Assembly (NCBI GenBank): GCA_951406725.2 | Contig: OX597820.1 | Coordinates: 29,202,001-29,266,000 of the forward strand | Direction: 5' to 3' | DNA: 64,000 nucleotides | Source of the DNA: Octopus vulgaris | Taxonomy: Eukaryota | Shown here: positions 33,701 through 63,611 of the stretch, piece after piece | How positions within the stretch are numbered: position 1 is the first letter of the stretch | Layout of the letters: every line of letters begins with the position of its first letter | Notes under the pieces: model-generated | The model's input: the letters and a program-made list of their open reading frames with translations, nothing else | Database searches by the model: none | Told to the model about the DNA's origin: nothing | Program-made: the position numbers and the translations under genes

Positions 33701-35980
33701 ATTTTTTGATTTTGATTTGATTTTTGATTTTTCCAGTTTCAGCTTATGAGCTGTGGCCATGCTGGGGCACCGCCATTTGGTGTTGCTACTTGGTTTCACT
33801 TCATGAAGGCTTTCTAGCAGCTGCTATTTGGTGCATGAGAGAGTTCGATGCAGCTGCCCTCATCTGCCCCTCCTGCCGTGAAGTTGGTTCATCTGGGACA
33901 TCTGACAGGAAGAGATCCAGCTTCATTTTAAAGACATCTGTATCCACCCCATGCAGGTCTCTCAGGTTCTTCGGGAGGATATTGAAGAGCTGTGGGCCTC
34001 GAAGCCCAGGCTATCACAGAATCTTGTCCTACATCTTGATGGCAAGTTTGGAGTCCTAGGCACCACGCAGTGGCGCCCAGTTCTGGCATTTGCGTAACTC
34101 TCGATGCCAAAGTTCAGGACCCTTCCCTCCAGGATCTTCCAGATGTATATTATGGCATATCTTTCCCGCCTACGCTCCAGGGAATATAATTTTAATTTCC
34201 TGAGTCTTTCCCAGTAGCTTACATTCTGCATAGAGGCTATCTTCTTCGTTTAGCTACGTTGGATCGCCTCGAGCTCTGTGATCAACTTGACACTGGATGG
34301 TGACCATAACTGAGAGCAGTAGTCAAAGTGGCTTAGGACAAGTGTCCTCCAGAGGACCATCATGGTTTCTTGTTCTCTTGTTCTAAAGGTTCTGAGGATC
34401 CATCCGGCCAGTCGTCTACATTTCATTGCCAATTTAGCAACATGTACACGAAAGGTCGCGTCATCACTCATGTAAATACCTAGGTCACGCACTGATTGTG
34501 CCTCTGGGATTGCTATTCCTCCGGGTCCAGTGTATTCATTGGGTATTGCATTTAGTTTTGCATGCTGATAGTATAGAGCTTGAAACTTTTCAGCATTGAA
34601 CTGCATGCTATTCTTTTCGGCCCACTTGTATATTTTGTCTAGCTCACATTGCAGGTGTTTAGTGTCCTCAGGGTTCTGTATTGCCTGTGAAACTTTTGTA
34701 TCATCTGCATAACTTGTGATCGTGGCTCTCTGCGTGGCTGAGGGCATGTCTGAGAGGGCCATTATGAACAGTAGTGGTCCCAGAACAGTGCCCTGCGGAA
34801 CACCGCTCACTATTTGCGTGTTAATGGAAGTGGCCCCATTGGCCGCTACCACCTGACTTCTATCTTTCAGAAAGTCATGAAGCCATTCTCCCCGTTTTCC
34901 AACTATGTTGAGATCACGCAGTTTGTGACATATCATTCCATGATCGACTTTATCAAAGGCCTTTGCAAAGTCGAGATATATCACTTCCACATTTGAGTGG
35001 TTGAGCAGCCGTTTCAGCACCCAGTCATAGTGTTGTAGGAGCTGAGTTAAACAGCTTCTCCCTGGTCGGAAACTATGTTGGGTGTCGGGCAGCAAGTCAT
35101 TTTCTTCAAGGAAGGTGATCAGCTTCCTTCTGACTATTCGTTCCATGACCTTGCTGATGTGTGAGGTCAGAGAGATAGGTTTATAGTTCTTGGCTTCCGC
35201 TCTGCTACCTCCTTTATGAATGGGGCATATTTTACCTTCCTTCAGTTTTCTTGGAAGTTTGCCAGCTGCAAGGAAACTCTGAAAGAGGAACTGCAGTGGT
35301 CTTGCTAGGACTCTCTTACATGCTTTTAGGAGGATTGCGGGAATCCATCGGGGCCAGTAGCTGAGTCTGTTTTCATTTCATCTATAGCCTTGATTACATC
35401 GTCTTCCTTTATATCGATGTAATCTATCGTCGCCGCCTCTGATTTTATATCTGCAGTGGTAAAAAAGTCAGTTGGATTGGTGATTTGGAGATGCCCAAGG
35501 AGTGGAGTGAAAACACTCTTGAATTGCTAATTCAGTATTTCACTTACCCTCATTGGTTTTCCTGTAAGTGTGCCATCCTTTTCAAGGAGTGGCCCTATTC
35601 TACAGTGCACCGTAGCTGTTTCTTTGGCATACCTGTAGAAAGCTCTGGGGTTAGATTTTATGCTGTCTATAGCCCAGGCTTCTTTGTCTGCTCTTTCCTT
35701 TTCATGGGAGAGTTTCAGACATTTTTCGATTTCCAACAGTTTTATTTTTAGGCGGGACTTTTCACTGCTTTCAATCTGTTTGTTTAGGCGATTTGAAAAT
35801 TTTGTACGCCGTCTCATTAGAATTTTCCTCTCTCTGGGGATTTTGTTCTTGTGTACAGTGGCCTTTCTCTCTGGGACATATTTGTAGCATATGGCTTGCA
35901 TTACAGACATGAATTGTTGAAGTTTCACGTCGATGTCTGGCGAGGAGAGACATTTAGGCCAGTTTTGTTTGAGGATCTCT
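33700..35980 (-). mobile_element. CR1/L2-group LINE, 5'-truncated, few disablements
   Basis: ORF 34250-35146 with RT motifs QHSFRPGRSC, YLDFAKAFDKVDH, GVPQGTVLGP, YADD, RDLG; continues in ORFs 35527 and 33962; (AATCAA)-like tail. Confidence 0.92.
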
Positions 35981-36034
35981 ATATACATATATATATATAT
36001 ATATATACACATACATATATATATATACATATAC

Positions 36035-36091
<57 letters not shown>

Positions 36092-36104
36092 CATATACAC
36101 ATGC

Positions 36105-36168
<64 letters not shown>

Positions 36169-36316
36169 ATATACATATATATATATACATATACATATAT
36201 ATATACATATACATATATATATATATATACATATACATATACATATATATATACATATACATATATATATACATATATATATACATATACATATATATAT
36301 ACATATATATATATAC

Positions 36317-36371
<55 letters not shown>

Positions 36372-36398
36372 CATATATATATATATACATATATATAC

Positions 36399-36430
<32 letters not shown>

Positions 36431-36468
36431 ATATATACATATACATATACATATATATACATATATAC

Positions 36469-36528
<60 letters not shown>

Positions 36529-36568
36529 ATACATATACATATACATATATATATATATATATACATAA

Positions 36569-36600
<32 letters not shown>

Positions 36601-36825
36601 ATACATATACATATATATATATACATATATATATACATATACATATACATATATATATACATATACATATATATATATACATATATACATATACATATAT
36701 ATATACATACATATATACATATACATATACATATATATATACATATACATATATATATACATATACATATATATATACACATATATATATATACACACAT
36801 ATATATATATATATATATATACACA
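35980..36825. repeat. Long (TA)n/(CATATA)n microsatellite
   Basis: Direct reading. Confidence 0.97.
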
Positions 36826-46364: not shown

Positions 46365-46466
46365 AATTACTTGTTCACACTTTTTCGACATCAGTGACTT
46401 TTCGTCACTGGAAAAAGGATATATATTTTCAAATGGGACCCACTATTCATCGGCAATCGGTGATTG

Positions 46467-47876
46467 CACTATTGGGTGTTGGTAGTGAATTCTTCAATGT
46501 GAATTCAAATTGTTACACACTGATATTGTATTTTTGTTGAAGGTTCCCCGCGCCGGTGAATCAAGATTCGTTGGATTGTGTAAATTATTGAATTTCAGCC
46601 ACTGTTTCGTTTGTACCTGTATAATCCCCCTCTACGGGAGGAGTGAAGAAAGATGGAGAATAGACAAAGTTACGCAGCGGCAACGACACAAGGAATAAAT
46701 ACCTACATCCTGGAAGTACAGGAAATAGAAATGGACATAAGAAAGAGGAAAGAAGGAAGAAAATTTGTAAAAAAGGAGGGCACCAGTCTAAAGCTGACTC
46801 CCCCGGAAGAACTGATGAAAAGCATAGAGAAGAGGACGGTAGAATACAGAAGGTTATCTACGTCCTCGAACAAGATAGAGGTAGCCCCAACAGAAGAAAT
46901 AGAGGAATGCCTCGAAAATGTGAAAAAATTGACCACGTTCTATACACATGGAAAGAAGTATGGCTCAGTGGAAGTAAGGTTTGGAAACGAAGATGCCATA
47001 AACCACTCCACGGAGCAGTTACGGACAACGAAATGGATACTACTTCTGACGTACTGTGGCAAACGCGCTGCCAGAGTGAAAGCTGGAAGAGTATCCGCCG
47101 AAATCGAGGAAGAATGACTGGTAGCAGCCATAATGCACGATATGAAGGATGGAGTTGAGATCCTCAAGATAACGAGGACCCCAAAATCCATTTAGTGGGG
47201 AAATAGCCTCGAAGTGACCATGCAGGTATCTTTGGAAGATTTGCATAGTATAGCGGAGGAAATAATACTCCCGGAAGACGTCAGACTTCGAATAACAGTA
47301 GAAGGAAGACCACCAACATGCTTCCTATGCGGCAAAAATGGGCACAAGATGTCCTGAGAAGGAAAATGAAGAGGAGAAGAAAAGTGGAGAAAACAATACC
47401 GAAGAGGTAGTACCAACGAAATAGACAGATAGAGTGGAGGAACCCTTCACAGTAGTAAACACGAAGAAGAGAAAGGAACGGGTGAATTCTCCCCCAGACA
47501 GTCAAAAAAGGCTAAAGGAGATTGTTATGAAAGAAAAGAGAAATAGGTGTGAAGCGCCAACTGAAGCAGTAAGTAATGAAGGCACACAGGGAAAAACAGC
47601 ATTACAACAGGGAGAAAAAGGAAGCGTTCATAAGATTGGTTATGATGTTTCTGCACGCCCGAACAGATCAGGACAGGAGCCGAAGCAAGCAGAAGTGAAA
47701 AGGAAGAGATATAAGTGGCTGTGTGGTAAGTAGCTTGCTAACCAACCACATGGTTCCGGGTTCAATCCCACTGCGTGGCATCTTGGGCAAGTGTCTTCTG
47801 CTATAGCCCCGGGCCGACCAATGCCTTGTGAGTGGATTTGGTAGACGGAAACTGAAAGAAGCCTGTCGTATATATG

Positions 47877-47911
<35 letters not shown>

Positions 47912-48678
47912 TTGTCCCCCTAGCATTGCCTGACAACCGATGCTGGTGTGTTTACGTCCCCGTCACTTAGCGGTTCGGCAAAAGAGACCGATAGAATAAG
48001 TACTGGGCTTACAAAGAATAAGTCCCGGGGTCGATTTGCTCGACTAAAGGCGGTGCTCCAGCATGGCCGCAGTCAAATGACTGAAACAAGTAAAAGAGTA
48101 AAAGAGTAAAGAGTATTCCAAAAGTAAAGAAATAGAGAAAACGATTGTAAAATTTAGATCGGCAATAAGAATAAAGCTGCCGCCAGGAAAATACCCGGAA
48201 TACACAAAGGGAATAGTCATAGACAAAGAGAGATTTTTGAAATTGAGAGAGATGTATGGACTTTTCATAAACCGGCTGGGGGTTGAAGTCGTGTTTGACG
48301 AGCTCCCGCCGGTCGTGGAATTAGATGATTTGAAACCCTTTATGAACATTTAAAAATAAGTAAGTAAAATTTGTACTTCATATAAAAAAAAATGAGGAAA
48401 ATAGACTGTTAAAAAATTTAAAGAAGGAAAAACATTATCAAAAAAAGACTGAGAAAAAGAACGAGCTAAAAAAGAAAAAAAAAAGAAAAGACTGTAAGAA
48501 CATTTAATTGTAAAAAAGTAATCACGGTTTCGTCTCGGAGCGGGACCGAGAAAACCGTTTTCATATTCATTTTAATTTAATTCATTGTAATTCATTCTTT
48601 CATATGTTTTTTTTTTTGTTCCCGCATGTTTATGTATGTCCCCTCTGTATTCAGGCCTTGTGCTTATAATAAAGAGAA
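46467..48678 (+). mobile_element. ORF1-only retroposon, full-length degraded copy with nested SINE A
   Basis: TSD AATCGGTGATTG (46455-46466, 48679-48690); disrupted ORF 46653-48353 with EGRPPTCFLCGKNGH knuckle, colinear with the 54418-55782 protein. Confidence 0.8.
47712..48115 (+). mobile_element. SINE family A nested in the ORF1-only element
   Basis: Matches consensus. Confidence 0.9.
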
Positions 48679-48729
48679 AATCGGTGATTGTCACACGCTG
48701 ATCACGGGTCAATACCCAGACATCGGAAA

Positions 48730-53067: not shown

Positions 53068-54062
53068 CCACCATTACTGATGACACTGAGGAACTCTCCT
53101 GGCGAAAGCATATTCTTGATATAACGAGGACCACGTCCCAACAACTAGCCTTTCTTTTCAGATGCTTCATTCTCACCCCCAGTAATTAGTGATAAAGCTC
53201 GGATGAAACCATCCACAATGGTACATTGATCTTACATCTGTGGTGGAGCTGTCACACACACACACACACACAGCTGTCTCTTATTACATCTAGAAAGAGT
53301 ACCCAACTCATTTGTTCAGGCCTTGAGCCCATGTCTGCTTTCTCACTGGCTTTTTATTTTACATATTTTACAATCATGTGGATTCTAAGAGTTCGTAAGC
53401 GTTAGCATGTTTTTGTGTCTGTGTGTTCGTTAGGCGTAAAAAGGTACTGACCAGTGAAATGACGATGGGATTTGATTCACAGTTAATGTTGTTGGTATCG
53501 GCTTGGCAACAGGTAATAACAGATGGCTTAAGGTAGTTCTTAGAAGAAACTAGAACCCAAGAACAGATAATTGATTTACCGTTTATGAGGTACACTGTAA
53601 GAGTTCCCAATCAAGATATTGCATGTCGCAGTTGAGATTAATTGAATCACTCGTTGTGTTTATCTTTCTCTTGATATGAATATACTTCCAGACATGTTAC
53701 TGTAGCCGTTTTTTCCGTGGCGAGAATTTCACCTAACCGCTATAGTTGAATCTGTAGTTGTCTCGTGTACAAATTAAATCTTCGATGTTTGTCGATTGGT
53801 TCTTGTTGCTTCTTCATTATTTTCTGCTTGGTTATTTTTCTCTAGTTATAGATATCTTGTAACCGTTCTTCATGGTGATTTTTCACACTAACATTATAAG
53901 AGGTATCTGTAACATCTTGTATTACTGGTGGTCGCCTGCCTTCGGACTGGAACTTGGTCGAGTATTCTCTGTGTGGTCAGAGACTTAGCTCTTAAAAGAA
54001 CTAAAAGCCTAAGACGAGCTCTGTGGTCAGAGGTTCGCCCTGAGAAGGGCTGGAAACCTAAG

Positions 54063-55920
54063 TATTTCTTTATTACCCACAAAGGGGCCACGAAGAGGGG
54101 GACATTACAAGACGGGACATGGGGTACATAAAGTAAAAATAAAATATGAAGTAAAGATGAATTATATGTAATGAGATGGAACGGCTTACGAACCCCCAAC
54201 TCGCAGTTCCGTTTAAAATACAATTGCACATTTCACAATTACATATATTCCAGTTCAAAATACAATTTTACAGTTACATATATTCCAGTTCAAAATACAA
54301 TAATTTTACAATTTACATTTTAACATTACATATATTCCTGTTCAAAATACAACTTTACATTTTACAATTTTACAATTAACAATTTTACTTTTTAACCTTA
54401 CATATATTCTAATTCTTTTATATTGGACGTTCGTCCGTCATATATTCTAATAGGTCCATTTGGTCTATTACATTTGGTAAATTGTCATACCGTACATAAT
54501 GCGTTATATGAATAGCATTAAATATCCTTTTTAACCTTGTGTATGTTTCCCTCTCCACAATTGCGCCCTTCACATCGTCACCATACAGTTTTGGGCTCAC
54601 CCTCACCCTGACCAACCCCTTCCCACCTGCAAGTCTCTCCTCCACCTCTGCATTCCTGATACACATCACAACCACCTTCAGGTTCCCTCCCGTAGGCCCC
54701 CCTCCACACCTACACGATTCCAACCGCCCGCTCACTCCCGTCTCCCATTCCTGTTCAAACTCTGTCCTTGGCCGCTCTCTCGCCCTCTCCTCCACCTCCT
54801 GCTCCTTGCATGCTCTCTCTTCCCCCTCCTCTGCTATCCTGCTTTTGATCTTCCTCCCCTCTAGAACTTTCGGTGGTGATTCCACCCCCGTTCTCCTCCC
54901 ATCCTCCGTTCTTTCCTCCTCTGCACCTGCTCGCTCCCCTCCCGCATCCCCATTCAGCTGCTCCTCCACTCCTGCCTCCTCCGCCTTCGCTTCCTCCTGC
55001 ACCTCTCCCTCCTCCACACACGCATCCTCACACTCCTCCACCACAGCCTCCGGTGCTTCTGCTCCCTCCCGCGGGCACACATCCCTCATGTGGCCCCTCG
55101 ATCCACAACTATAGCAGATTGGGGGTCCTCCCTCCACCACAACTCCAAGCCGCGTCTCATCAGGGTAGACCAACTCCTCCGGGATATTGCACAGGCCTCG
55201 CACGGCCATGTGTGCCAGAACCTGCACCGCACATCCCCACCACTCAACCTCTGCTGACCTCTCCACCTTCAACACCTCCACACCATCCTTGCAGTTGAAA
55301 ACCACTGCCGCCAACAACCTCTCCATATTAAATTCGGGCGAAATTCCACCAATTCTCATCCTCACCGCCCCCCCTCCGCAGCAACTTGGTAGCAAAGTCC
55401 ACCCATCCGATTTCAAAACTCCTGTTGCACTCTTCCCTGCTTCACTCTCTGTTTCGAAATACACCACCACCGCGGCACACCTCCCTCCTCCTTTGAAAAA
55501 TGTGGGCTCACCCTCAACTTCCTTCAGACACCCCTCCACCTCTTCCATCTCTGCCACTTCAACCCTCCTCGACGCCACACACCATGTCCTGTACGCCATC
55601 ACACGCCTCTCCGCGTTGCCTTCCTCCTCCTCGGACGGTGTGACCCTCACGCAGCCACCCTCCCTCCTCAAACCGTCGAAATACCTTTGCAAAGTCCTCC
55701 GCTCGACCACCACCTCCTCCATTTCCAGTTCACTGGCAACCAGGCCTCCGCCCGCCGCTCTCGCACAAGTCCACTCTTGCATTTTCAAGAATCTCAAAAA
55801 AAAAAAAAAAAAAAAAAAAAACCATTCCACGTCCTCCAACGAACTCGAACTCACAACCTCCTCACAATGACGCACTCGAAACAAACACACCAGAACAACT
55901 CCAACTAACTAACTCAAAGA
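54063..55920 (-). mobile_element. ORF1-only non-autonomous retroposon (HAL1-like architecture), intact copy
   Basis: 13-bp perfect TSD CTGGAAACCTAAG (54050-54062, 55921-55933); single ORF; AT-rich 3'UTR; tail ...GCCCCTTTGTGGGTAATAAAGAAATA; no RT or endonuclease. Confidence 0.85.
54418..55782 (-). CDS. Gag/ORF1-like protein with CCHC zinc knuckle (454 aa from the first ATG)
   Basis: VEGGPPICYSCGSRGHMRDVC (CX2CX4HX4C), acidic linker, C-terminal domain conserved in two other copies; the ATG at 55782 aligns with MENRQSYAAA of the 46653 copy. Confidence 0.8.
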   Translation of the reverse strand: MQEWTCARAAGGGLVASELEMEEVVVERRTLQRYFDGLRREGGCVRVTPSEEEEGNAERRVMAYRTWCVASRRVEVAEMEEVEGCLKEVEGEPTFFKGGGRCAAVVVYFETESEAGKSATGVLKSDGWTLLPSCCGGGAVRMRIGGISPEFNMERLLAAVVFNCKDGVEVLKVERSAEVEWWGCAVQVLAHMAVRGLCNIPEELVYPDETRLGVVVEGGPPICYSCGSRGHMRDVCPREGAEAPEAVVEECEDACVEEGEVQEEAKAEEAGVEEQLNGDAGGERAGAEEERTEDGRRTGVESPPKVLEGRKIKSRIAEEGEERACKEQEVEERARERPRTEFEQEWETGVSGRLESCRCGGGPTGGNLKVVVMCIRNAEVEERLAGGKGLVRVRVSPKLYGDDVKGAIVERETYTRLKRIFNAIHITHYVRYDNLPNVIDQMDLLEYMTDERPI

Positions 55921-56008
55921 CTGGAAACCTAAGACGAATATTTTTCTGAGAAACCTTGTTTTATAAGCTTCATCAGGCTCCCAGTGAACTTCAGAAATGG
56001 AAAGCTGT

Positions 56009-56111
56009 GATTGGCTGCTTGGAACTATGGCGCGAAAATAAGTCGAGACATTTTGCGCCAAGTTATAACCAGCGGTGCGAGCGTAGTAGAGACCAACGTG
56101 TCAGCCAATCG
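56009..56111. promoter_or_regulatory. Candidate promoter: CCAAT boxes flanking two E2F-like sites
   Basis: ATTGG 56010, GGCGCGAAA 56029-56037, TTTTGCGCC 56051-56059, CCAAT 56105 in a CpG-retaining patch. Confidence 0.35.
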
Positions 56112-56548
56112 AATTAGTGTTTACAACAATGTTGAACTAGCCAAAGCTGTTTGTAATCTCGACCGAGGTCATTCTTAATACTCTTCTCAAACAGTGAAGA
56201 TAGCAATGAGAGACGATATTGCTACAGATGCATGCATGTCGTTATTTCGTTTTATTTTTGTATTCCACACCAACAAAGAGCCAGTTTCTAACCTAGATCC
56301 AAGGCTCCTTCATTGGAATTTCTACATCATTGAAGTGTGCGTGTGTGTGTGTATGTATGTATCCATGGATGTATGTACGTACGTATGTATGTATGCATGC
56401 ATGTATATGTGTAGATTTGAAAGTTTTGTTTATTTTTCTTTGTATATATTATCTGTAGAGCTGCATGTCTAGATATGCTCGTATATACTTGAATGATAAA
56501 CCTCTGGCAAGTTTTACAGATTCTTATAGTTTCCTGATGGCTTGCATC

Positions 56549-59822: not shown

Positions 59823-60127
59823 TCAGATCACTTGGAACTCTGGAGAGCTTGCGGGCTGTGTTCCAGGTGAGTTGCTGCCAGGGGAATTATAATGTGACCT
59901 GTCGGATCGGTCTTTGTCGCGAGAAGAGAAAGAGTCGGATCTTTCCGGGCGGCTGTCTTTGTGCCTGTGTTTGTGCTTGTGTTTGTTTTTCTTCTTCTTC
60001 TTTTTGGTCTTGTGTAATTTACCGGAACTTTCCTCACTGGAGCCAAGCCTTGAGAAGTCCAGAGACGACTGAGACATCAACTTCAACCCACCGAATGATG
60101 GAGCCGAACCAGGGTTGGGTGGCATTT
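59823..60127 (-). CDS. TAF2: Terminal coding exon, probably TFIID subunit TAF2
   Basis: Polypyrimidine/CAG acceptor (TTTTCTCCTTTTTTACCAG) before 60127; encodes KKKKKKNKHKHKHRHKDS...SPGSNSP...SSPEF, like the K/H-rich TAF2 C-terminus; TGA stop; AATAAA at 59753-59758. Upstream exons lie outside the window. Confidence 0.62.
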
Positions 60128-61654: not shown

Positions 61655-63611
61655 AGAAGCTAGGAGACAGGTTTATTTAGCCAGAGGGGAAGCAGATAAG
61701 AAAAAATTTGCCAATGTTCTGCGCCGTGAGGACCAAAGACTGGAGGTGTTTCGTGTTGCAAGACAGTGTGTGAGAGAGAATCGTGATGTGGTAGGAGAGA
61801 AGTGTGTTCGCATGGAAGATGGTTCACTTGCGCTAAATGAGGATGCAAAGAGAGAGGTTTGGAGATGCCACTATGAAAGGTTGCTGAATGAAGAAAATGA
61901 ATGGGATAAAGAGAGTCTGCCGAATGTTGACCCAACAGAGGGACCAGCTATCCGAGTTGATAGTTCCGTGGTAGCTAAGGCAATTAGAAGCATGAAGACA
62001 GGGAAAGCCCCAGGCCCATCAGGAATCACTGCAGAGATGCTCAAAATGTCTGGTAGTGTCGGCTATAGCCTAGTCACCCGTATAGTTAATCAGGTGATAC
62101 ACAAAGGGGTCATACCCAATGACTGGTGTAGCAGTATAATAGTCAACTGCTACAAAGGTAAAGGTGATGCCCTAGATACAAATAACTACAGAGGTATCAA
62201 GCTGTTGGACCAGGTGATGAAGGTTACGGAGAGGGTCATAGCCCAACTAATTAGAGAGAGAGTTAGTTTAGATGAGATGCAGTTTGGGTTTGTGCCAGGG
62301 AAAAGTACTACTGATGCTATATTCCTGGTAAGGCAGCTGCAGGAGAAATACCTAGCCAAAGATAAGCCCCTGTACCTGGCTTTTGTTGACATGGAGAAAG
62401 CCTTCGACAGGGTCCCCCGATCCCTTATCTGGTGGGCAATGAGGAAACTAGGGATAGATGAATGGTTAGTGAGAGCTGTGCGGGCCATGTATAGGGACGC
62501 CGCTAGTAGGGTGAGGGTTGGAAATGTGTACAGTGAAGAATTCCGGGTAGAGGTAGGAGTCCACCAAGGCTCAGTACTCAGCCCCCTCCTATTTATCATA
62601 GTCCTCCAGGCAATAACGGAGGAATTCAAGACAGGATGCCCTTGGGAGCTCCTCTATGCTGATGACCTTGCTCTAATTGCTGAGTCGCTATCAGAACTGG
62701 AGGAGAAGTTTCAGGTGTGGAAACAAGGATTAGAATCGAAGGGCCTCAGAGTCAATCTAGCTAAAACCAAAGTCGTAATCAGTAGGAAGGTAGACAAATC
62801 ACAAACACCTTCAGGTAGATGGCCCTGCTCGATCTGTAGAAAAGGTGTAGGTAGAAACTCTATAAGATGCACCAAGTGTAAGCTATGGACACATAAGAGA
62901 TGCAGCAATGTCAAAGGAAGGCTAACTAGGAAGATGGTTTTTGTATGTGGCAGATGCTCAGGAACAATAAACACTGAAAATGCTCTGAGACCAACTTCCG
63001 TCACTTTCCAGGGAGAAAAACTAGAAATAGTTGATAGTTTCCGTTACCTAGGTGACCAAGTCAGCAGCGGGGGCGGGTGTGCTGAAAGTGTAACTGCTAG
63101 AGTAAGAATAGCTTGGGCAAAGTTCAGAGAGCTCTTACCTCTGCTGGTGACAAAAGGCCTCTCGCACAGAGTGAAAGGCAGACTGTATGATGCGTGTGTA
63201 CGAACAGCCATGCTACATGGCAGTGAAACATGGGCCGTGACTGCTGAGGATATGCGTAAGCTCGCTAGAAATGAAGCCAGTATGCTCCGATGGATGTGTA
63301 ATGCCGGTACTCACACTCGGCAGAGTGTAAGTACCTTGAGAGAAAAGCTGGACCTAAGAAGCATCAGTTGTGGTGTGCAAGAGAGACGTTTGCGCTGGTA
63401 TGGTCATGTGGCGAGAATAGATGAAGATAGTTGTGTGAAAAAGTGCCACACCCTAGCGGTTGAAGGAACCTGTGGAAGAGGCAGACCCAGGAAAACCTGG
63501 GACGAGGTGGTGAAGCACGACCTTCGAACTTTAGGTCTCACTGAGGAAATGACTAGAGACCGAGACCTCTGGAAGTGTGCTGTGCGCGAGAAGACCCGGC
63601 AGGACAAGTGA
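61655..63611 (+). CDS. RTE reverse transcriptase (about 650 aa, endonuclease missing) with embedded PHD-like zinc finger
   Basis: KAPGPSGI, NYRGIKLL, QFGFVPGKSTTDAI, AFVDMEKAFDRV, GVHQGSVLSP, YADD, FRYLG; CSIC..CTKC..H..C..CGRC insert. Confidence 0.9.

Follow-up and report, generated by a model that had tools for sequence, protein, structure and literature searches.

Introduction

Several non-autonomous LINEs are known to have kept an ORF1. HAL1, HeT-A and Ag-Sponge arose in the clades L1, Jockey and CR1, and no Tx1 case is listed with them (PMC5786205). These elements encode an ORF1 protein only, have a 3′ end in common with autonomous LINEs, and their mobilisation in trans has been inferred (PMC5786205, PMC5753468). 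In the Drosophila arrays of HeT-A, TART and TAHRE, ORF1-only and autonomous elements are mixed in head-to-tail trains of a single direction, the upstream promoter serves the element, and targeting to the telomere is done by the HeT-A Gag (PMC5537684). Target-specific insertion of Tx1 elements is described for Tx1L in Tx1D, for Keno in U2, for Tx1-Mar together with SINEU-3 in Mariner-N4, and for Tx1-8_Crp and Tx1-4_AMi in LTR elements; repeats serve as targets, tandem insertions are found with intervening TSDs, and 5′ extensions come from flanking transcription (PMC4494074).

Known target-specific LINEs mostly read DNA sequence by their endonuclease. The yeast element Ty3, on the other hand, inserts at a specific position relative to the promoter of Pol III genes. 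Insertion of Dictyostelium TRE5-A is also position-specific relative to the promoter; its ORF1p binds TFIIIB subunits, and the ORF2-less TRE5-A.2 is moved in trans (PMC5633606). Deaminase footprints are fixed in APOBEC-hypermutated LTR elements, where the G>A changes arose on DNA intermediates in vertebrates, invertebrates being at noise level (PMC4866542). For ADAR, depletion of G on the 5′ side of the edited base is a hallmark, and hyper-editing in octopus is very high (PMC5625713). A 2026 octopus annotation reports 13 recently active L1-Tx1 families; the available main text makes no mention of ORF1, non-autonomous, target or HAL1, and its supplements may list families of the kind treated here (PMC13282606).

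Here we analysed a 64-kb stretch of Octopus vulgaris DNA (the window), which holds one member of an ORF1-only retroposon family, here called family Q. We consider it rather probable, taking the whole reading together, that this is a Tx1-derived ORF1-only family that is copied in trans, tends to land ∼30 nt past the TATA boxes of host repeats and uses host promoters, and that the copy in the window was ADAR-edited.

Family Q has the features described above for HAL1, HeT-A and Ag-Sponge, but differs from them in that its parent is likely Tx1-like, that several diverged ORF1-only families exist and that its insertion appears to be TATA-positioned. From HAL1 proper it further differs in its predicted protein model, in which a pair of RRMs is joined to a CCHC knuckle and a coiled coil is lacking. 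It also resembles the HeT-A arrays in its trains and in the likely use of an upstream promoter, whereas it is non-telomeric, the promoter would come from an unrelated host repeat and the junctions between units are TSD-like. With the target-specific Tx1 elements it has in common the choice of repeats, the tandem insertions with TSDs between them and the 5′ extensions; those elements have one sequence target each, whereas family Q is found in at least five unrelated repeats and at unique sites, apparently at a TATA distance and not at a junction sequence. TRE5-A and Ty3 target Pol III genes, whereas the apparent anchor of family Q is a sense-oriented TATA box of Pol II type. The copy in the window, like the APOBEC-mutated LTR elements, carries a deaminase footprint, but here a non-LTR element has sense-strand A>G changes, which point to editing of RNA. 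ORF1-only LINEs, as well as Tx1 elements that target transposons and are co-transcribed with them, were already known, and family Q is HeT-A/HAL1-like and probably Tx1-derived. A literature search covering sources other than subscription journals, Repbase and Dfam returned no title on Tx1-derived ORF1-only elements, on TATA-anchored LINE targeting or on genomic A>G-edited LINE copies.

The window holds a copy of an ORF1-only retroposon

The initial annotation had described a 1858-bp minus-strand unit bounded by a perfect 13-bp TSD, with one 454-aa ORF and no RT. We recovered the same boundaries from a DNA match search and the junctions: the unit extends over 54063-55920 of the minus strand (1,858 bp) and is flanked by two identical 13-mers. 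Its features, from the 5′ end, are as follows.

55921..55933, minus strand: 5′ copy of the 13-bp duplication, starting 32 nt past the initial T of the TATAAAA box
54063..55920, minus strand: ORF1-only retroposon copy of family Q (DNA match search and junctions)
54418..55782, minus strand: ORF1, 454 aa, sole ORF of the unit
54063..54088, minus strand: 3′ end, a 4-bp hairpin and then AATAAA (layout compared across families)
54050..54062, minus strand: 3′ copy of the 13-bp duplication, single in empty targets

The duplication is genuine, because empty copies of the target hold the 13-mer once. Its 5′ copy may be either a TSD made by a staggered cut or a target-derived RNA leader. The 5′UTR has 138 nt, and the 3′UTR has 355 nt and terminates in AATAAAGAAATA. 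Within the unit 54063-55920 we found no RT, endonuclease, LTR or TIR.

Family Q is multicopy and its ORF1 is under purifying selection

Exact matches to a 21-nt motif of the 3′UTR gave at least 74 copies of family Q, and a DNA search with the element gave at least 69 matches, which came from 39 of 333 scored candidates. As many as 48 of the 51 long DNA matches began in the first 22 nt of the element, in a sample biased to full-length copies; searches with the 3′ end brought further, 5′-truncated copies. In the fetched loci, some of which overlap, the 3′ tail was located 174–380 nt past the ORF end in 66 of 75 ORF ends and 929–1,494 nt past it in three, while no tail was matched in the other six; neither EN nor RT was observed within any family Q unit of this set. 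The TSDs are variable (∼13–18 bp), which together with the 5′-truncated copies is a hallmark of target-primed reverse transcription.

For six unedited representatives, dN/dS was 0.08–0.24 in aa 1–238 of ORF1, 0.20–0.80 in the linker and 0.25–0.75 in the C-terminal part. These ratios indicate that the ORF1 of family Q is kept under purifying selection, with the strongest figures in aa 1–238. The parts of the protein are located in the window as follows.

55123..55725, minus strand: predicted tandem RRM-like domains, ∼aa 20–220 (model of the unedited sister copy L002)
55075..55116, minus strand: CCHC zinc knuckle, aa 223–236, CX2CX4HX4C
54421..54762, minus strand: lineage-specific C-terminal domain, ∼aa 341–454, predicted generic ferredoxin-like fold

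Mammalian L1-type ORF1 consists of a coiled coil, an RRM and a CTD. In the model of L002, a coiled coil is absent, and L1 ORF1p was absent among the PDB sequence and fold matches listed. The pLDDT of this model is 80–92 across ∼aa 20–220, for which the best PDB matches were RRM1-2 pairs (E 6.5e-5). The knuckle that had been noted earlier is present, its Pfam zf-CCHC match in the window copy (E=0.003) being below the model's cut-off. The ORF1 protein of family Q is therefore predicted to have two RRMs plus a CCHC knuckle and to be RNA-binding. The C-terminal domain, when modelled alone, gave a ferredoxin-like fold of generic type (pLDDT 77), and no specific structural relative was found for it (none in the Atlas; Foldseek best E=0.06; VIA best Z=4.8). 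In a protein database search with ORF1, none of the 8,000 candidates (249–795 aa) reached E≤0.001.

Family Q occupies fixed positions in five host repeats

The copy in the window is embedded in a repeat that we call target A, with the following parts.

55934..56226, minus strand: host repeat A, upstream part (repeat of ∼1.15 kb, solo-LTR-like, with TSDs of 4 bp at other loci)
56010..56014, minus strand: CCAAT box of the host repeat (from its sequence)
55959..55965, minus strand: TATAAAA box of the host repeat (from its sequence)
53353..54049, minus strand: downstream part of host repeat A; the 3′ end of the repeat is missing from the window

Repeat A has fixed termini, 4-bp TSDs and both CCAAT and TATA boxes, and we read it as a solo LTR, or at least as solo-LTR-like. 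We rejected its assignment to an R4 or Penelope end, as neither its termini nor its 4-bp TSDs depend on these neighbours. The hairpin that surrounds the TATA box in the window (fold z=−2.5) was considered as a hammerhead, and this was also rejected, the core not being conserved in the sister targets.

The insertion positions of family Q are fixed in five multicopy repeats, namely an LTR-like, a Helitron-like and three hammerhead-bearing Penelope-like repeats. Target B, which we take to be Helitron-like from its end motifs, is a 1-kb repeat that holds a captured ORF1 fragment and has 310 exact empty sites. Targets C, E and H have a type-I hammerhead layout according to an in-house motif scan that matched three of seven stretches, the non-matches being one E copy, the E copy in the window and both target-A stretches. 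Rfam, applied to five loci, returned no hammerhead model and only microsatellite-type miRNA noise. The layout is as in Penelope-like repeats (PMC4209133), and a Penelope RT follows target C in L083. The 3′ ends of the family Q subfamilies match their own target type.

Autonomous relatives are candidate partners of family Q

In addition to other ORF1-only families (A2, B, C and E, ∼24–35% identity), the flanks of family Q copies hold the autonomous LINE families G and F, each with a homologous ORF1 and an APE-RT-zinc ORF2. Pfam Exo_endo_phos, RVT_1 and zf-RVT, and no RNase H, were found in ORF2 of G and F. Since the APE-RT-zinc layout is common to the L1 clade, it is not by itself diagnostic of Tx1, and the only named Tx1 match was 25% identical; we regard these candidate partners and the parent of family Q as likely Tx1-like. 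The comparison with HAL1 made in the initial annotation thus holds for the ORF1-only type and not for the parent, which is likely not a mammalian L1. ORF2 (EN-RT) is open, with 1,128–1,131 aa, in 25 of 30 family G loci. Intact copies of family F (L195 and L212) are 57–59% identical to G.

The ORF1 of family Q is just 22–28% identical to that of G and F, and in the ORF1 tree it forms a supported clade separate from both, so it is no recent deletion product of either. This bears on the possibility that the unit arose by a single internal deletion in an autonomous LINE, or else as the processed pseudogene of a host gene with RRM and knuckle. This possibility has a point in its favour in that the Atlas look-alikes of ORF1 comprise CCHC proteins as well as RNA-binding domains of ZCCHC3 type (score 0.90). 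The copy number, the separate ORF1 clade and the selection acting across subfamilies make either origin extremely improbable; moreover, no examined copy continues into an ORF2, and the genomic matches are all repeat copies with LINE-type tails, which are non-poly(A) in most copies. The earlier proposal of a non-autonomous ORF1-only retroposon that borrows RT in trans is instead supported by the multicopy family, the purifying selection, the predicted RRM-RRM-knuckle protein, the units devoid of ORF2, and the autonomous EN-RT relatives having a common 3′ end.

The layout of this 3′ end, a hairpin and then AATAAA, is common to the autonomous LINEs, the sister ORF1-only families and one abundant SINE. 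In most elements the end consists of a 4-bp stem and, after it, a signal of AATAA type; this layout was not recovered in the examples of E, L188 and L212. Among the stem variants (GCCC/GGGT, GGGC/GCCC, GGGC/GCCT and GATC/GATC), the sequence shifts and the pairing is kept. Family Q, its sister families and the autonomous LINEs stack head-to-tail in a single direction, forming trains, one of which has five family Q copies and then families B, C and G.

Family G is at a single position of target B in most of the 30 loci. Family F, inserted in hammerhead-bearing repeats, occupies targets C, E and H, in common with family Q. Both G and F thereby show insertion into repeats of the target-specific kind known from the Tx1 clade. 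The tail of the window copy resembles that of G, of which the off-target copies have no TATA link; F occurs in the TATA-linked targets, but its tail sequence differs from that of the window copy. Taken together, the sequences suggest that a full-length relative likely supplies the enzyme that copies family Q in trans, and both G and F are candidates for this relative.

Insertions tend to start ∼30 nt past a TATA box

We then examined the contexts of the insertions. In nine of 11 unrelated contexts, TATAWAW (at most one mismatch) begins 26–34 nt 5′ of the TSD start, against a background of 14.9%, whereas other 9-nt windows have it in 0–4 of the 11. Alignment of the 11 contexts at the TSD start revealed no common junction sequence among them. 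Eight contexts formed the discovery set, from which eight of the nine passes come, and the TATA prediction was fixed ahead of fetching six new contexts. L083 was excluded from the tally for its ambiguous 5′ junction. The prospective result was one to two passes out of six (p=0.22–0.62), which is not significant: L172 passed and H was borderline (box at −24 to −26), while L171, L173, L258 (TSD uncertain) and L268 had no box at the predicted spacing. Over all the contexts, the spacing was found in 9 of 14 (p=3.6e-5; 4e-4 after correction for 11 windows).

Two of five 5′-truncated copies, L071 and L172, have the spacing (p=0.03); they are at new sites and their boxes, at −30/−31, are perfect. Off-target copies of sibling families had it in none of nine cases, 10 of the 19 loci of this control having been dropped for want of a clear junction TSD or as SINE units. 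These observations suggest that the link between TATA boxes and insertion is real overall, that it is partial, and that survivorship may explain a part of it.

It is conceivable that survivorship accounts for the TATA spacing entirely. Targeting would then be ordinary homing by sequence or homology, the RNA ends of a source copy guiding new copies into the same repeat types, and copies that were promoter-proximal by chance would be the sole sources. Such homing would agree with the correspondence between subfamily 3′ ends and target type and with the lack of a box in four of the six new contexts; it also has precedents in the targeting of transposons by Tx1 and SINEU elements, with tandem insertion, and co-transcription that strengthens the targeting (PMC4494074). 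It is less easily reconciled with the perfect boxes of L071 and L172, which are truncated, dead copies at new sites, with a spacing that is constant across targets without a common junction sequence, and with the off-target sibling copies. We regard homing of this kind as possible but unlikely to be the whole explanation, and we favour insertion that is in part positioned by the TATA box.

How far this positioning might go is a matter of a more tentative proposal, to which we give no greater weight than to homing: a promoterless retroposon would home to Pol II starts through an ORF1 that senses the TATA-bound complex, and its copies would now and then bring ADAR-edited RNA into the cephalopod germ line, giving a direct path by which RNA editing becomes heritable sequence. 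Such sensing would explain the retention of ORF1 in an element that borrows its ORF2. By analogy with TRE5-A ORF1p and TFIIIB, tethering to the basal machinery is a possible role of the family Q ORF1p, and a targeting role like that of the HeT-A Gag is also possible. If true, landing at a TATA distance would be the Pol II counterpart of TRE5-A and Ty3, would give a reason for ORF1-only elements to retain their gene, and could guide tools for promoter-proximal gene insertion.

Displaced leaders suggest transcription from host promoters

In L085, the second unit bears the leader of target A while being at a non-A site, and one unit of L048 bears the leader variant of locus L176. Moreover, L003 and L006 have a 5′ 'TSD' that is unlike the 3′ copy. 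The displaced leaders and the unequal TSDs fit transcripts that initiate at ∼TATA+30 in the host repeat, in which case the upstream 13-mer in the window may be RNA-derived. Among the runs listed for the window none was RNA, and contigs from presumed RNA runs across a target-B junction did not reveal a start site. From these junctions it is likely that family Q uses the promoter of the targeted host repeat.

We propose the following life cycle. Pol II would start at the host start site and read through the element, and the RNA would gain a short host-derived leader. ORF1p would package the element RNA in cis. The ORF2p of family G or F would recognise the 3′ hairpin and carry out target-primed reverse transcription. 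The site would be chosen near the TATA-box start, aided by pairing of the target-derived ends of the RNA with the same repeat type. As each new copy would land promoter-proximal, a train would grow at its promoter end.

The copy in the window carries a load of A>G changes

Comparison with sister copies delimited one further feature.

54520..55920, minus strand: A>G hypermutated stretch

Among the 183 differences between the window copy and its nearest sister, L002, 170 are sense-strand A>G and two are G>A. When the family majority serves as reference, A>G accounts for 152 of the 165 substitutions in the window copy and for 155 of the 180 in a second copy, L020; no comparable excess was present in the remaining 47 of the 49 family Q copies, and a screen of the sibling families A2, B, C, G and F (65, 29, 5, 35 and 29 rows, some overlapping) yielded no comparable copy. 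The edits are depleted where the 5′ neighbour is G (7 of 159, versus 136 of 367 where it is another base, p=2e-17), favour G as the 3′ neighbour (58 of 137), and end ∼450 nt short of the 3′ end of the element, with almost none beyond. The window copy and L020 hold 79 edited sites in common versus 41 expected; their nearest relatives differ, so the editing events are independent. Contigs with 0–1 mismatches to the edited sequence were found in runs of two studies (X1 is possibly the assembly's own sample; X2 is from the second study), which argues against an assembly error.

From this pattern, the 170 changes likely stem from ADAR-hyperedited RNA that was written back into inherited DNA. In terms of the proposed cycle, the RNA would occasionally be in a duplex, become hyperedited and nevertheless give rise to a germ-line insertion. 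Other conceivable sources of such a load are bias of the reverse transcriptase, a process acting on DNA and an error in the assembly. The downstream G speaks for a cause of this sort, as it contrasts with the A that is preferred downstream in invertebrate hyper-editing (PMC5625713); in addition, no inverted copy that would explain the dsRNA is present within the 64-kb window, and one of the matching runs may be the assembly's own. However, the strand specificity, the avoidance of 5′ G, the sharp stop before the 3′ end, the restriction to two of 49 copies, the excess of common sites in copies of different sublineages and the near-identical contigs of X2 all argue against a non-ADAR cause, which we consider improbable.

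An origin from ADAR-edited RNA would matter in several ways. The hyperedited copies suggest a flow from A-to-I edited RNA to inherited DNA, in a lineage of extreme editing. They could serve as fossils from which germ-line ADAR activity can be dated, and would allow one to ask whether ADAR holds retroposons in check by damaging their proteins while creating no stop codon.

The initial annotation had called this copy intact; its frame is open, but 97 of 454 ORF1 residues differ from L002, 91 of them by A>G alone. Since A>G cannot make a stop codon, the open frame is uninformative on the function of this copy. For annotation this is a warning that a scar of editing can take the form of an open ORF rich in GC. 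The lysines decrease from 50 in L002 to 16 in the window copy, and an otherwise invariant Arg ahead of the knuckle is lost, so that the protein of this copy is probably impaired.

A second hyperedited copy and long trains

We observed a second A>G hyperedited copy at locus L020, in which A>G changes account for 155 of the 180 substitutions. The hyperediting of this copy is independent of that of the window copy. L020 is the first unit of a three-unit train (units stacked head to tail in the same direction) residing in target A, the solo-LTR-like host repeat. Sequencing runs X1, X2, X7 and X8 yielded further low-depth contigs, whose mismatches to the window copy were mostly extra sense-strand A>G; these contigs may represent L020 or different edited copies. 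One of the runs with such contigs carries the label of another organism. On C2 and C3, ORF1-only units were also stacked into mixed trains of great length, with at least 10 units across 20–28 kb.

G000:C4:97907996-97909841, L020, second A>G hyperedited copy
G000:C2:138763531-138791724, very long mixed train of ORF1-only units
C3:20071406-20090000, very long mixed train of ORF1-only units

Host repeats used as targets

Target B (loci L151-L170), a repeat 1 kb long and present in at least 310 copies, has captured a decayed ORF1 piece of the family Q superfamily. Families Q, A2 and B (ORF1-only) and the autonomous LINE family G land in target B at a site marked by a TATA-like box within this captured piece. 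Target A was found in tandem at L232, L236 and L237, where its copies are separated by a ∼190-bp spacer with ends that we take to be primer-binding-like and purine-rich. The tandem copies together with the spacer resemble a miniature LTR element.

Other elements in the window

46467-48680, +, second ORF1-only relative, decayed (family E, 35% identity)
59823-60125, −, 100-aa exon-like ORF
61812-63611, +, LINE RT remnant with a 599-aa open RT frame, unrelated to family Q
34250-36768, −, LINE RT remnant with an interrupted frame, unrelated to family Q
52682, 52866, 15389 and 26067 (also L045:6109-6477), abundant SINE

The family E copy, broken up by a 400-bp insertion, is flanked by a 10-bp TSD (46457-46466 and 48681-48690). 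A TATA box lies ∼38 nt upstream of it, within a hammerhead-type Penelope-like repeat, a target common to many genomic copies.

The abundant SINE, which forms short tandem runs, has the same 3′ hairpin-AATAAA tail as family G and the family Q element, and family G is a candidate for its partner LINE.

The 100-aa ORF, ∼3.6 kb upstream of the family Q element on the same strand, ends in a Lys/His/Ser-rich stretch and resembles the final exon of a host gene.
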